A stretch of DNA of 64,000 bases, from the sequence record PV646497.1; one strand, given 5' to 3'. The position numbers and the translations under genes are program-made. Positions 34,525 to 43,275 of this stretch are shown piece after piece. This DNA is from Enterococcus phage CUB-FS. The notes below the pieces were generated by a model. The model saw only the letters and a program-made list of their open reading frames with translations. It was not told the DNA's origin and made no database searches. Positions within the stretch are counted from its first letter, which is position 1. Every line of letters begins with the position of its first letter.

Positions 34525-34655
34525 GGATGCGCCCGGCTAGCGGTGGAGAGTCAAGCCATGCGGGTTCACCTTAATAGCTACCGTCCCCAGATTGTCGGTT
34601 TTTCTTCCTTTATACAGTAAGAAAAAATAATTTAAAAAAAAAATGAACTTTTCTA

Positions 34656-34684
34656 TTGACAAAAAACAAAAGCTAGTATAATAT
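34656..34684 (+). promoter_or_regulatory. promoter cassette (TTGACA-17-TAATAT)
   Basis: ttctattgacaaaaaacaaaagctagtataatatag. Confidence 0.5.
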
Positions 34685-34739
34685 AGAGCGTGTAAGGAAC
34701 AACAACAATAAAAAATAAAGATAAAGGGGCGCTATTAAA

Positions 34740-35039
34740 ATGAACAAGTATAAATTTACCTATGCAGATATTAAAAACCTATCAGAGGAAGAAAAAGAAA
34801 AAGAATTAAAAAATCGGTGTGGTGTTTTAGCGGTAGAATGCTTAAGCACTAAACAGCTACAAAAGAAAAAACCTCGATTTATGGTTTTCTTAAATACTGT
34901 TATTTTTGACAGTACCGCAGAAACAGGCGGACAATACGCAACGGCAACCGTTAAAACCGAACCGATAGGGGATGGACGTTTTCGAGTGTGTGATGGTTGG
35001 GGACAGCTTTCTAATGGAATTATTGAACTGTTAAAATAA
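34740..35039 (+). CDS. hypothetical protein
   Basis: 99 aa. Confidence 0.5.
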   Translation: MNKYKFTYADIKNLSEEEKEKELKNRCGVLAVECLSTKQLQKKKPRFMVFLNTVIFDSTAETGGQYATATVKTEPIGDGRFRVCDGWGQLSNGIIELLK

Positions 35040-35055
35040 TTTATAAAAAAAACTA

Positions 35056-35084
35056 TTGACAAATAACAAAAGATAAACTACAAT
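35056..35084 (+). promoter_or_regulatory. promoter cassette type A (TTGACA-17-TACAAT) + RBS GAAAGGAAG
   Basis: aactattgacaaataacaaaagataaactacaataaacttgtcagataaagaaaggaagt. Confidence 0.55.
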
Positions 35085-35111
35085 AAACTTGTCAGATAAA
35101 GAAAGGAAGTT

Positions 35112-35441
35112 ATGAACATGAATGAATTAGAAGCAGTGAAAGAATGGAATAATAAGATTGAGGAACAACAAGAAGTGCTAAACAAGGTTATTGTTACTTT
35201 TTATAAAGAAATCGATTTAAAGGTTAAAATGGTAAACCGTGGTTTGCTAGGGCAGTTATCAGCTTTTAACGAACTAAAAGGAATGCTATCAGGTATCGAG
35301 CTAACAGCAAAGGTTATTGCACCTGATAACGTGCTACCTATTACAACCCACAACTTTTTAGAATATTTATTTCTAGGGGATAACGAACAACGAGCATATG
35401 CAAAAGAATACCTAGACGGCTTTTTAAAATCAGTAGAATAA
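35112..35441 (+). CDS. hypothetical protein
   Basis: 109 aa. The true start is probably the 2nd or 3rd ATG (35118/35124). Confidence 0.5.
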   Translation: MNMNELEAVKEWNNKIEEQQEVLNKVIVTFYKEIDLKVKMVNRGLLGQLSAFNELKGMLSGIELTAKVIAPDNVLPITTHNFLEYLFLGDNEQRAYAKEYLDGFLKSVE

Positions 35442-35480
35442 GGGGAGGAAAATTTTCCTCCTTTACATAAAAAAAAATGG

Positions 35481-35509
35481 TTGACAAGTTAAAAAAAACC
35501 ATGATAACA
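35481..35509 (+). promoter_or_regulatory. weak promoter-like element (TTGACA-17-ATAACA)
   Basis: ggttgacaagttaaaaaaaaccatgataacatataaat is followed by a 36-aa ORF at 35538..35648. Confidence 0.3.
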
Positions 35510-35675
35510 TATAAATGTAAACAAGGGAGGGGCTTTATATGATGAACGGACTAAAAAGACTTATGAAAGCTAAACGATACAAGAAAGAAGTAAAAGAAGT
35601 TATCACTATACAAAAGAAAGCAATAAACGAACTAGAAACATTAAATAAAAATTTAAAATTAATTAATCAAAACTA

Positions 35676-35704
35676 TTGACAAATAACAAAAGATAAACTA
35701 TAAT
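35676..35704 (+). promoter_or_regulatory. promoter cassette type A (perfect TTGACA-17-TATAAT) + RBS
   Basis: aactattgacaaataacaaaagataaactataataggtttataagataaagagaggaagt. Confidence 0.6.
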
Positions 35705-35737
35705 AGGTTTATAAGATAAAGAGAGGAAGTTTTAAAT

Positions 35738-35965
35738 ATGATTATCGCAGAGAATGAGTTATACTTAGTTAAAAAACCATTAAATGAGTGGGATATGAAC
35801 TACCATTTAATTGAAAAAGAAACAGGAAAAGACTTTTTGATTGATATAGATGAGGTGGCAGAAAATGTAGAAGAAGGAGAGAAGTATGAGCTGGGGCTTC
35901 TTTTCTCAGACTTACAAAATCTTAATATCGAATTACTAATTGAAAATAGTTGGAAAACTATTTAA
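35738..35965 (+). CDS. hypothetical acidic protein
   Basis: 75 aa. Confidence 0.5.
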   Translation: MIIAENELYLVKKPLNEWDMNYHLIEKETGKDFLIDIDEVAENVEEGEKYELGLLFSDLQNLNIELLIENSWKTI

Positions 35966-35986
35966 AATTAGTTAATCAAAACTATT

Positions 35987-36015
35987 GACAAAAAACAAAA
36001 GATAGTGTATTATAA
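35987..36015 (+). promoter_or_regulatory. promoter cassette type A (TTGACA-17-TATTAT) + RBS
   Basis: aactattgacaaaaaacaaaagatagtgtattataaattcataagataaagagaggaagt. Confidence 0.55.
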
Positions 36016-36046
36016 ATTCATAAGATAAAGAGAGGAAGTTTTAAAT

Positions 36047-41397: not shown

Positions 41398-41457
41398 ATT
41401 AAGTGTAAGGAGGGAGGGAAACCTCCCTAACATACAAATAGAGAGGAAGTTTTTACT

Positions 41458-42153
41458 ATGACAGAATTTGCTAATATGAATAAAGAAGAGGTATTGGAAT
41501 TACTTAATGATTGGTTTGGTGTTAGTGACTATGATACAGTGATGGAAGAGTTAAGGGAGATGAAACAAGTTACCTTTACAGGTAGCACGGACATACCTCT
41601 ATTAGGTGGTAACGGTAACTTAATCGGTTTACCTCAATTCTTTAAAGACAATGAAGTAGAACCAGAGTTCCCAACTTATGGAGAATTACTAGAGGAACTA
41701 GAGAAAGATACATGGAATCTCGAAGCAGAGGACAACACTTACAATTATAGTGGCTTCCTAGAAAGTGAATCAGATTTTAAAGTTATTCAGGCAGAAAATT
41801 CAGACACGACTATTGCATTTTTTGCAATCCATACGGGTATAGACATAAGAGCGGGCTACTCAAAAGCAATCCCAGTTATTTTTGAAACTTACTACGATTT
41901 TTATGAATTTTTAGGCAATTACTTTTATAGTCAAGGCTACTACGCTTTTAAACACGACAACAAGGAATACACAATCAGTTTAGACGTTTCGGCTGTTTCA
42001 GAGTATGTACGAATTTATATAGCCGATGAAAACAACGAGGAATTACAGCAAGTCTATGAACAAGAAACTTGTATGGACTTAGACAAGGAAAGCGTAGCAG
42101 AATACTTGAAAGAGGAAGGGATTGAGTTTACTGACTTAAAACCCGCATTGTAA
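41458..42153 (+). CDS. hypothetical acidic protein
   Basis: 231 aa, RBS AGAGAGGAAG. Confidence 0.5.
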   Translation: MTEFANMNKEEVLELLNDWFGVSDYDTVMEELREMKQVTFTGSTDIPLLGGNGNLIGLPQFFKDNEVEPEFPTYGELLEELEKDTWNLEAEDNTYNYSGFLESESDFKVIQAENSDTTIAFFAIHTGIDIRAGYSKAIPVIFETYYDFYEFLGNYFYSQGYYAFKHDNKEYTISLDVSAVSEYVRIYIADENNEELQQVYEQETCMDLDKESVAEYLKEEGIEFTDLKPAL

Positions 42154-42259
42154 CCATATAAGGCACTAGGGAGCTTATACAATAGAACTACAAGCCTCCT
42201 AGTGTAATTATAAGGTAAATAGCTAGAAACGCTTATACGAAAGAATAGGGGGCTTTAAA

Positions 42260-42403
42260 ATGACAACGGATGAATTAAAAGAGTTTTACTATGAAAACGG
42301 GATTGACTTGTGGAATGATAACCTATATTTTGAGCAAGTTGTTTCTAGTGGTGGATGGTACTACGACAATGGACGCGGTTTATGGTTTAATTATGAGGAT
42401 TAA
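42260..42403 (+). CDS. small hypothetical protein (47 aa; below the ORF-track cutoff)
   Basis: MTTDELKEFYYENGIDLWNDNLYFEQVVSSGGWYYDNGRGLWFNYED*. Preceded by a GAACGCTTATACG…ATAGGGGGCTTTAAAATG element like the one at 39775-39812. Confidence 0.3.
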   Translation: MTTDELKEFYYENGIDLWNDNLYFEQVVSSGGWYYDNGRGLWFNYED

Positions 42404-42420
42404 AAATTTAAACTTTTCTA

Positions 42421-42449
42421 TTGACAAAAAACAAAAACTTTGGTATTCT
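42421..42449 (+). promoter_or_regulatory. promoter cassette type B
   Basis: ttctattgacaaaaaacaaaaactttggtattctatacttgtaagataaatagagaggggaac. Confidence 0.5.
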
Positions 42450-42486
42450 ATACTTGTAAGATAAATAGAGAGGGGAACTAATAAAA

Positions 42487-42753
42487 ATGAAATTAAAAGA
42501 ATTTATCAAACTAGCAGAATCAAAAGGCGCTACATTAGAAGCATACAACGAGCTAGGAGGTTATGAACTAACTAGAGGGGACATAGTAGACCAGAATCCC
42601 GTTTTGATTGCTTACATGCAAGGGGCTTACAGCGTAGAAATACCAAACAAGGAACTAGAAAACAAGGAGTTAACAGAACTAGCGTTTGTCTATAAAAATG
42701 TAAGTCTTATTTATCCAAATGAAAAAGAACTATTGTCAGGACTAGGACTATAG
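42487..42753 (+). CDS. hypothetical protein
   Basis: 88 aa. Confidence 0.5.
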   Translation: MKLKEFIKLAESKGATLEAYNELGGYELTRGDIVDQNPVLIAYMQGAYSVEIPNKELENKELTELAFVYKNVSLIYPNEKELLSGLGL

Positions 42754-42766
42754 CACAACGGCATAT

Positions 42767-42800
42767 AAAGCCCGTAGCGAGGTTTTAGCGGGCTTTATAT
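42767..42800 (+). terminator. putative terminator
   Basis: AAAGCCCG-tagcgaggttttag-CGGGCTTT followed by atatat. Confidence 0.4.
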
Positions 42801-42825
42801 ATAAATACCTTAAGGAGGAAACAAG

Positions 42826-42966
42826 GTGCTTACAGTGGAAAACAAGGGCGTTAGGTGGCTAGTGAGTAAAGAAGCATGGAAAGCGGGCTTTGCTATGGAG
42901 GTGCTAGGCTTGCCAGATTGTAAGGTTAGTACAGTATTAAAATCGGTCTATAAAATTATTATTTAA
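42826..42966 (+). CDS. small hypothetical protein (46 aa, GTG start)
   Basis: RBS TAAGGAGGAAAC + GTG. VLTVENKGVRWLVSKEAWKAGFAMEVLGLPDCKVSTVLKSVYKIII*. Confidence 0.3.
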   Translation: MLTVENKGVRWLVSKEAWKAGFAMEVLGLPDCKVSTVLKSVYKIII

Positions 42967-42983
42967 GTATTTAAACTTTTCTA

Positions 42984-43012
42984 TTGACAAATAACAAAAA
43001 CTTTGGTATTCT
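42984..43012 (+). promoter_or_regulatory. promoter cassette type B
   Basis: ttctattgacaaataacaaaaactttggtattctatatttgtaagataaataagaaagagag. Confidence 0.5.
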
Positions 43013-43048
43013 ATATTTGTAAGATAAATAAGAAAGAGAGTGATTGGA

Positions 43049-43192
43049 ATGGAAACTAACAAAGCATATGAAAGACTATTGAAAGAAGTAGAAAACTTAC
43101 AGAATGATTTAATGGATATCGAGGACTATTCAGAAGAAGTATACCAAGCCTTTCAAAGATTAATCGAAGAACTCGAAGAGGTAACCGAATAG
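43049..43192 (+). CDS. small acidic coiled-coil protein (47 aa; below the ORF-track cutoff)
   Basis: METNKAYERLLKEVENLQNDLMDIEDYSEEVYQAFQRLIEELEEVTE*. It is the last plus-strand gene before the convergence point. Confidence 0.4.
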   Translation: METNKAYERLLKEVENLQNDLMDIEDYSEEVYQAFQRLIEELEEVTE

Positions 43193-43275
43193 GACTAGAC
43201 CAGTCCTATAGGTATATACCAGTTGACCCGCCCCCGTGGTTTTGTGACCGTACTTTGGGGGTGGGTCTGTTTGCC

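Follow-up and report, generated by a model that had tools for sequence, protein, structure and literature searches.

The 64,000 nt of Enterococcus phage CUB-FS analyzed here (accession no. PV646497.1; from here on, the window) contain, between 34.65 and 43.2 kb, an array of 24 small genes, all on the + strand, along which a cassette combining a promoter and a ribosome site recurs 15 times. Sequence matches to phage records identified the source as a phiEF24C-like Enterococcus phage of the genus Kochikohdavirus (Herelleviridae, Brockvirinae), the family of SPO1. A query of about 10 kb matched 110 phage records, with ECP3 as the best match (97.8% identity over 63% of the query), and nucleotide identity to Kochikohdavirus records was 92–98%; the limited coverage by ECP3 indicates that the array region is highly mosaic. 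All 24 genes are annotated as "hypothetical protein" in the relatives. The array extends across two compartments: the segment 34.65–39.3 kb is the right end of the unique genome, immediately 5′ of the direct terminal repeat (DTR), and positions 39521–43287 are the DTR itself. A previous reading made from the sequence only had correctly described the repeated cassettes and their small genes, but had missed this boundary running through the middle of the array.

Each cassette is around 90 bp long and consists of an A/T-rich upstream stretch, frequently TTAATCAAAA, a first conserved block (block 1, CTATTGACAAATAACAAAA) that holds a perfect −35 box, a 17-nt spacer, the −10 box, approximately 7 nt, a second conserved block (block 2, TAAGATAAAGAGAGGAAGT) that forms the leader and holds the ribosome site, and around 10 nt before the ATG. 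The TTGACA −35 box is invariant, the spacer is of 17 nt in 13 of the 15 array copies, and the −10 box and the ATG are separated by exactly 34 nt in 11 of the window's 18 copies (15 in the array and three outside of it). All copies have the orientation of the gene that follows, their pairwise identity is 60–100%, and 15 of the 18 are concentrated within 8.5 kb, upstream of ORFans. This geometry supports their identification, already advanced in the sequence-only reading, as host sigma-A-type promoters plus a ribosome site. With up to three mismatches allowed, the window has 16 matches to the 19-mer CTATTGACAAATAACAAAA, all of them on the + strand, whereas shuffled sequences would give 0.07; likewise, TAAGATAAA occurs 14 times in the 64 kb, counting both strands, versus 2.7 expected, and all 14 occurrences are within cassettes. 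A generic promoter scan was barely enriched (58 sites found versus 44±8 expected), and only the specific cassette pattern is informative.

A TTGACA hexamer lies within 0–6 nt of each of the 16 promoter positions listed in that previous reading; 15 of them are copies of one cassette, and the other, at 35481, is a separate site. The recurrence of promoters is thus real, although a count of "at least 18" is slightly high: for the 24 genes there are 15 cassettes, two promoter-like sites that are not cassettes, and one leader-only scar. The similarity between the copies at 35671 and 37803, set at approximately 58 bp, is in fact longer, with 77 identical bp (35652–35728 and 37782–37858). Conversely, neither the division into two subtypes nor the confinement of the cassette to 34.65–43.2 kb held: the array contains at least four −10 subtypes (TAyAAT, TATTAT/TATATT, TGgTATTCT, and TAATAT), and a fifth one, TAAACT, is found outside the array, in copies with the −35 box at 24493, 25915, and 27120. 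Subtypes are unevenly distributed when the window is taken together with eleven relatives: the extended −10 TGgTATTCT (type B) is in the DTR in 23 of 23 cases and TATTAT/TATATT is upstream of the DTR in 37 of 37, whereas TAyAAT and TAATAT are found in both compartments; these counts include orthologous copies, and are descriptive and not independent.

Searches of bacterial genomes with the 19-mer returned 37 single matches, scattered among unrelated taxa as expected by chance, and none in the representatives of E. faecalis or E. faecium, indicating that the cassette was not copied from a host promoter. In IMG/VR, a scan retrieved no more than 10 stretches, of which three belong to EFLK1. As for secondary structure, in 14 of the 15 array cassettes folding is no stronger than in shuffled sequence (z from −1.2 to +1.2), the exception being the leader of the copy at 41369 (z = −5.4).

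Upstream of the DTR, cassette 1 (34630–34742; −35 at 34656, −10 TAATAT, with a long leader of 56 nt) precedes a gene for a product of 99 amino acids (aa) (34740–35039; phrog_25744, function unknown), and cassette 2 (35030–35120; −35 at 35056, −10 TACAAT), where three relatives have an extra gene of ~375 bp, precedes a gene of 107 aa (35118–35441; phrog_14846). The first promoter-like site that is not a cassette (35481–35510, TTGACA-18-TAACAT with a TG) is directly 3′ of a hairpin and is followed by the gene for a basic product of 46 aa (35539–35679; phrog_20676). Cassette 3 (35650–35740; −35 at 35676, consensus −10 TATAAT), which shares the 77 bp with cassette 8, precedes an acidic product of 75 aa (35738–35965; phrog_19608); cassette 4 (35959–36049; −35 at 35985, −10 TATTAT), where Sw5 and MDA2 have the junction of an insertion of 404 bp, precedes a predicted membrane protein of 68 aa (36047–36253; phrog_26721); and cassette 5 (36247–36337; −35 at 36273, −10 TATATT) precedes a product of 80 aa (36335–36577; phrog_11078). 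Cassette 6 (36566–36649; −35 at 36592) has lost 7 bp of its spacer, with 10 nt left, and is located before a gene for an 81-aa protein of the DUF8033/PF26096 family (36647–36892; phrog_4264). Cassette 7 (36870–36960; −35 at 36896, −10 TATTAT) is followed by an acidic product of 76 aa (36958–37188; phrog_5149) and this, beyond a hairpin, by a gene without a cassette (37239–37445; 68 aa, phrog_33460). The second promoter-like site (37425–37453, TTGCAA-17-TATAAT) precedes a gene of 103 aa (37485–37796; phrog_26004), and cassette 8 (37780–37869; −35 at 37806, −10 TATAAT) a gene of 97 aa (37867–38160; phrog_24730). Cassette 9 (38144–38244; −35 at 38170) has a 3-bp insertion in the spacer and, in its 3′ part, two breakpoint clusters, at 38210–38222 and 38243, each found in 10 of 10 relatives. 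The gene that follows it (38242–38454; GTG start, 70 aa, phrog_27904) opens a four-gene operon completed by a gene of 101 aa with a predicted membrane segment and no PHROG (38451–38756), one of 63 aa (38744–38935; phrog_5861), and one for a basic product of 118 aa (38948–39304; phrog_23244), the final gene before the DTR. From their spacer lengths, the promoters of cassettes 6 and 9 are probably weak or dead.

The nine genes of the DTR, downstream of its non-coding left end, start with cassette 10 (40039–40129; type B, −35 at 40065) and a gene of 75 aa (40127–40354; phrog_31670) that is missing from KEN16 and LG1 as a unit of 306 bp, followed by cassette 11 (40345–40440; type B, −35 at 40371) and a gene of 90 aa (40438–40710; phrog_28291). 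The leader-only scar (40690–40752) retains TGTAAGATAAAG and the ribosome site, without −35 or −10 boxes, contains the stop codon of the upstream gene, and precedes a gene of 103 aa (40750–41061; phrog_33327). Cassette 12 (41044–41137; −35 at 41070, −10 TAATAT) precedes an acidic product of 74 aa (41135–41359; phrog_24238), and cassette 13 (41343–41460; −35 at 41369, −10 TAATAT) the largest one, acidic and of 231 aa (41458–42153; phrog_22029), whose gene is the sole DTR gene retained in the minimal 1.9-kb DTR of EF1TV. A gene without a cassette for an acidic product of 47 aa (42260–42403), cassette 14 (42395–42489; type B, −35 at 42421) with a gene of 88 aa (42487–42753; phrog_20721), a gene of 46 aa with a GTG start 3′ of the hairpin 42765–42798 (42826–42966; phrog_28273), and cassette 15 (42958–43051; type B, −35 at 42984) with a gene for an acidic product of 47 aa (43049–43192; phrog_15914), the final one on the + strand, complete the array. 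The leader of the 231-aa gene carries at its 5′ end (41405–41432) the strong hairpin GGGAGGG...CCUCCC, responsible for the low z value noted above; ECP3 also forms a hairpin there, from another stem sequence, TAAGGAGG...CCTCCTTA, which suggests that the structure is conserved, and it could be a stabilizer of the mRNA or an attenuator.

Cassette homology extends into the first codons at 35112–35135, 36329–36345, and 36641–36664 (ATGAACATGAA..., MNMNELE); the true start of these three genes is probably the second ATG, and the start they share may form part of the translation-initiation signal or of the crossover zone. The three copies outside the array, on the + strand and 8–10 kb upstream of it, comprise a type C cassette (24467–24557, −10 TAAACT) and its two sisters, and their units (24493–24806, 25915–27051, and 27120–27479) contain, respectively, genes for an 83-aa HTH_3 (XRE-type) regulator, a 357-aa LPXTG protein, and a 100-aa ORFan. 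The LPXTG cell-wall anchor motif of the 357-aa protein is unusual for a phage.

The products of the array have 46–231 aa, around half of them are acidic, and two have a predicted hydrophobic membrane segment. Nearly all of the 24 proteins match small PHROG families, every one of unknown function, and none had a match in our local Pfam library. The previous statement that they lack recognizable domains stands with one correction, the DUF8033 protein behind cassette 6. This protein has 298 homologs spread over many phage groups, with the highly conserved motifs YDSRKSFYGKA and SQTTLRHIKEF, and a confident AlphaFold2 model (pLDDT 92.7), for which BFVD returned matches named DUF8033 and no related solved structure was found. 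The 231-aa DTR protein has homologs in close relatives only, and its AlphaFold2 model was set aside (pLDDT 39.6). No paralogs were found among 25 proteins, those of the array plus the product of the gene immediately upstream (33966–34397), indicating that the repeats did not originate by gene duplication.

The DTR, of 3767 bp, is present once in the window (39521–43287), and its junctions are common to LG1, EF1TV, iF6, and KEN04. The left junction is TTTACCTG|AGATTTTAAAG (also given as GTTGTTTACCTG|AGATTTTAAAGAA) and the right one is CCCGACCCT|GGGGTACC (also given as CCCCGACCCT|GGGGTA). This interval corresponds to an exact repeat of 3746 bp at both ends of the linear LG1 record (150,025 bp); a direct repeat of 1911 bp is annotated on the left and right of EF1TV, and one of 2108 bp in iF6, a Schiekvirus, in both cases with the same junction sequences. 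The termini of iF6 were checked by restriction analysis and RAGE (PMC10054541). For KEN04, the junction motifs predict a repeat of 2847–2849 bp, and the repeat determined with PhageTerm is 2849 bp (PMC11360260). Similarly, the repeat reported for phage 163 at 104,991–107,095 (PMC9860891) ends at the same window position as the DTR. The virion DNA is thus, as deduced from these relatives, [39521–43287] ... unique genome ... [39521–43287], and the window derives from an assembly with the repeat collapsed to one copy. Nine of the 24 array genes are inside the DTR and the other 15, at 34.74–39.30 kb, are directly 5′ of its right-hand copy. The start points of records were rejected as physical ends, KEN16 beginning in an array of 24-bp tandem repeats and KEN04 in a cassette, both of which are assembly breaks.

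To locate recombination junctions, ten relatives were aligned to the window and the ends of homology between 34.6 and 43.3 kb were clustered into distinct breakpoints. Cassettes cover 17–18% of this region and contain 27 of the 42 distinct breakpoints (binomial p = 6.5e-11). Nine distinct indels have 50–90 bp of cassette homology on both sides, so that a single cassette in one phage aligns with two cassettes flanking a gene in the other; most of the units are of 251–404 bp, which is the size of one gene plus one cassette. EF1TV and EFLK1, for instance, have one intact cassette in place of the two that in the window flank the gene at 36335–36577, which they lack as a gene-plus-cassette unit of 319 bp, and the 7-bp spacer deletion in the downstream copy of the window looks like the scar of such an event. 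There are also chimeras: in ECP3, a cassette 11/13 chimera takes its upstream half from the 40371 copy and its −10 box and leader from the 41369 type, the changeover lying within CTATTGACAAATAACAA, and the window cassettes at 35056 and 35985 each combine the promoter from one copy in a relative with the leader and gene from the copy after it, switching within AGATAAAGARAGGAAGTT. The comparison shows unequal cassette-to-cassette recombination that adds, removes, or swaps gene-plus-cassette units, and the gene shuffling proposed in the sequence-only reading is in this way borne out by breakpoint enrichment, chimeric junction cassettes, and indel units. As a consequence of recombination at cassettes, the region and the length of the DTR, predicted at 1.9–5.8 kb in twelve relatives, are hypervariable among close relatives.

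The same pattern could arise if cassettes were alike only by selection for strong expression and breakpoints fell in them as indels avoid coding sequence. Cassettes do make up about half of the non-coding DNA of the region, and 9 of the 42 breakpoints are in coding sequence or gene edges, away from cassettes. However, when the null expectation was limited to non-coding DNA, cassettes still contained 27 of 33 breakpoints (p = 1.6e-4); furthermore, selection on expression does not account for chimeric junction cassettes that pass from one parental subtype to the other within block 1 or block 2, for indels with cassette homology at both sides, or for an identity of 77 bp between two copies, which exceeds what a promoter needs. 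We therefore regard this explanation as unlikely.

Taken together, our preferred reading, which we consider quite probable, is that this is an early-gene region of the SPO1 family, placed over the junction between the unique genome and the DTR, in which host sigma-A cassettes also serve as portable homology for shuffling. Unmodified host sigma-A RNA polymerase would fire the cassette promoters once the DNA enters the cell, leading to a burst of small host-conditioning proteins, and the nine genes in the DTR would be at double dosage, as the DTR is at both ends of the virion DNA; the two conserved blocks also act as portable homology for exchange within a phage or between co-infecting phages. 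We infer the early timing and the host-takeover role from the promoter geometry and the precedent of the family. The likeness to SPO1 proposed previously agrees with the placement of the phage in the Herelleviridae, the location of nine of the 24 genes in the DTR with the rest abutting it, and the same design of repeated promoters and ribosome sites in SPO1, the timing being by analogy.

Alternatively, the cassettes could be middle-class promoters that need a polymerase modified by the phage, or a phage sigma factor, and the genes would not be immediate-early. Phages of the family encode their own sigma factors, with phiEF24C having a protein like gp34 of SPO1 (PMC3601020), and the conserved leader and compartment-specific −10 types could mark separate regulons. 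Yet the exact TTGACA, the 17-nt spacer, and a TATAAT-like or extended-TG −10 box are the pattern of host sigma-A, while late promoters of the family lack a host-type −35 box, as in CGTTAGA(N17-19)GATATT from SPO1 (PMC3601020) and TGTTATATTA, with no −35 box, from Kayvirus (PMC7698491). Additionally, terminal-repeat genes are the earliest class in the Listeria phage CKA15 (PMC12282133) and have been described as early in SPO1 (PMC6873191), all of which makes a middle-class identity improbable. Finally, that the repeats are not expression signals but sites bound by a phage protein, or scars of packaging, replication, or the terminal repeat, is highly implausible despite about half of the array being within the DTR: every copy is oriented with its gene, has full promoter geometry and closes with a ribosome site and a start codon at constant spacing, copies also exist 10–15 kb from the DTR, before the regulator and LPXTG-protein genes, and the DTR junction sequences bear no relation to the cassette.

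Several points nevertheless weigh against an early, host-takeover module with shuffling cassettes. Our search for transcripts or mapped start sites from Enterococcus phages of the Herelleviridae returned none, and no array protein has a known function, so that the term host takeover draws on position and analogy. The comparison with SPO1 genes 37–60 suggested in the sequence-only reading revealed no protein resemblance (best E = 0.025 when the 25 proteins were searched by tblastn in the SPO1 terminal redundancy). Two cassettes, those at 36592 and 38170, have spacer lengths expected to cripple the promoter. As to recombination, breakpoints in non-coding DNA are partly expected, since selection removes indels that break genes, and the ten relatives are mutually non-independent. 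Likewise, the DTR was placed by homology to relatives and not from reads of this isolate.

Other features of the locus accompany the array. Few terminators separate the cassettes, the hairpins found being at 35444–35461, 37197–37213, 42765–42798, and 43276–43293, and read-through probably adds to downstream expression. The first two are G+C-rich inverted repeats of the type GGAGG...CCTCC, with + strand sequences CCTCCTTTACATA, followed by a tail of three T, and CCTCCCTTTACATA, respectively, and in a consensus scan both scored as terminator-like on the − strand only. They share within 35444–35468 and 37197–37221 the motif GGAGG...CCTCC(C)TTTACATA, also present in MDA2, which may be a conserved weak terminator dividing the array into units. 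The hairpin at 42765–42798 was not flagged by the terminator consensus scan. The last one, at 43276–43293 on the + strand, is a terminator-like hairpin (TACCCCGACCCTGGGGTA followed by a T-run) with the right boundary of the DTR, after position 43287, in its loop (TACCCCGACCCT|GGGGTA). The sequence ACCYTG is found at both DTR boundaries and may be there by chance.

The non-coding stretch preceding the DTR (39305–39520) contains 3.8 copies of ACTATAAA plus purine-rich tandem repeats of 14 and 21 bp, and varies among relatives. Inside the DTR, the non-coding left end (39521–40038) has three copies of AGGGGGCGCWTA (39557–39568, 39644–39655, and 39733–39744), spaced 87 and 89 bp apart, at distances of 37, 124, and 213 bp from the DTR's left end; the first copy is kept in LG1 and EF1TV, and iF6 has CAGGGCGCAC in that position. 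These copies are candidate packaging or end-recognition sites. A duplication of 60 nt, with 80% identity, links 39754–39813 to 42200–42259 within the DTR: the latter contains the ribosome site and start of the gene at 42260–42403 and the former, since it precedes an open reading frame of only 21 codons, looks like a decayed gene start.

Immediately 5′ of cassette 1 there are 3.8 copies of a 24-bp tandem repeat, TAAGTAGCAGGTTGCAAAATTCCC (34430–34522); the KEN16 record begins and ends within this array, and EF7H is ~250 bp longer there. The G+C-rich segment next to it (34515–34612) was discarded as a structured element, folding no better than shuffled sequence (z = +0.9). Further upstream, dense TAGGATA / TAGGATAAAC repeats, with periods of 11, 12, 21, and 66, occupy 33809–33951, in the non-coding gap before the gene at 33966–34397, and look like a cluster of binding sites. 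Scanning the whole window with Rfam at gathering thresholds gave no match in the array, only a group I catalytic intron (6607–6863, + strand; RF00028, full-length match, 72.8 bits) and a drum RNA (3044–3140, + strand; RF02958, 52.8 bits versus a gathering score of 43), both far away; a permissive Rfam scan of 33.7–43.6 kb gave no match either, and no tRNAs were found in the window.

Among known systems, the closest in kind is the host-takeover module of SPO1, whose genes are located in the terminal repeat and are preceded by strong ribosome sites and promoters of the host type (PMC7414437; PMC6873191). Both belong to the Herelleviridae, are in or at the terminal repeat, comprise many small genes of unknown function in short transcription units, and use host sigma-A-type promoters and strong ribosome sites as repeated blocks; in the SPO1 terminal redundancy we found a promoter block of 58 nt, present in six copies, and a ribosome-site block of 40 nt, present in five. 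The two differ in that their proteins are not similar and that only part of the CUB-FS array is inside the repeat, with all its genes in one direction, whereas the SPO1 module has two opposed halves. Moreover, in CUB-FS promoter and ribosome site are fused in a compact unit with a fixed distance of 34 nt, and the range of identity among copies is wider than the 66–83% of the SPO1 blocks. As a separate observation, the SPO1 terminal redundancy has an A/T repeat array with a period of 11 bp and a long T run at 11333–11496, between genes 55 and 56.

In its mechanism of variation, the array is closest to the promoter-early stem-loop (PeSL) cassettes of T4-type phages (Arbiol et al., 2010, PMC2839356; Comeau et al., 2014, PMC4122927). 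In PeSLs, too, a ribosome site and a host-type early promoter accompany an A/T-rich stretch, the unit is repeated ahead of ORFans in hypervariable regions, and it forms the junctions at which DNA has been inserted, deleted, or replaced between close relatives. The array behaves as PeSLs do without being one, because the defining stem-loop is absent from 14 of the 15 cassettes; in addition, the host is Gram-positive, the phage family is unrelated, and here there are two separate crossover blocks.

Within the family, Kayvirus (the group of phage K) has 58 early promoters of the sigma-70 type, with the −10 TAATAT only in its host-takeover module (PMC7698491), a −10 box also found here at 34656, 41070, and 41369. 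The terminal-repeat genes of a Listeria phage of Pecentumvirus (the A511/P100 group) peak 5 min after infection, and the early module of CKA15 likewise reaches beyond the terminal repeat (PMC12282133). These phages and CUB-FS share dense sigma-70-type early promoters with a 17-nt spacer, extended −10 boxes, and A/T-rich upstream stretches, and in Kayvirus and Pecentumvirus the terminal-repeat genes are the earliest expressed. Their promoters were mapped by RNA-seq, unlike those of CUB-FS, known from sequence alone; on the other hand, near-identical promoter-plus-leader cassettes or their shuffling are not described in the cited papers on these two genera.

Coliphage T5 has a long direct terminal repeat with pre-early genes, small host-shutoff genes behind strong host-type promoters. 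The long DTR is a feature in common, and PhageTerm assigns the Enterococcus phages to the T5-like long-DTR packagers (PMC11360260; PMC9860891); the families are unrelated, though, and the two-step DNA transfer is a T5 feature with no bearing here.

We found no published description of the cassettes or of cassette shuffling in Enterococcus phages, although the phiEF24C genome paper, which may list promoters, was outside that survey. A more speculative synthesis, which we judge somewhat less likely to be right than wrong, would see the cassette as a portable homology unit of two blocks, promoter and leader, each a crossover site, that lets Enterococcus Brockvirinae of the genera Kochikohdavirus and Schiekvirus trade single, expression-ready ORFans: a Gram-positive counterpart of the PeSL, without stem-loop, that would also set DTR length. 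Under this synthesis, the strict split of −10 boxes (TGgTATTCT confined to the repeat, TATTAT to the DNA upstream) would correspond to two early regulons with separate timing, and a phage factor would recognize the invariant 5′ leader TAAGATAAA to shut the transcripts off later.

Phages of the Kochikohdavirus type are leading therapy candidates against resistant enterococci, and this region is annotated in them only as "hypothetical protein". The map of promoters, DTR, and gene units points to the genes that are probably made first, which constitute a screening set for host-shutoff or anti-defense activities, and the cassettes themselves are compact, graded, and strong promoter-plus-ribosome-site parts for Enterococcus. 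Cassettes and tandem repeats also explain the assembly breaks at this locus, as those in KEN04 and KEN16, respectively, and cassette shuffling explains why near-identical isolates differ in repeat length and gene content. This kind of region was already known, and cassette shuffling, together with the repeat length that it determines, goes modestly beyond an established idea: the shuffling of regulatory cassettes, known from T4-type phages, is extended to a second, unrelated family.

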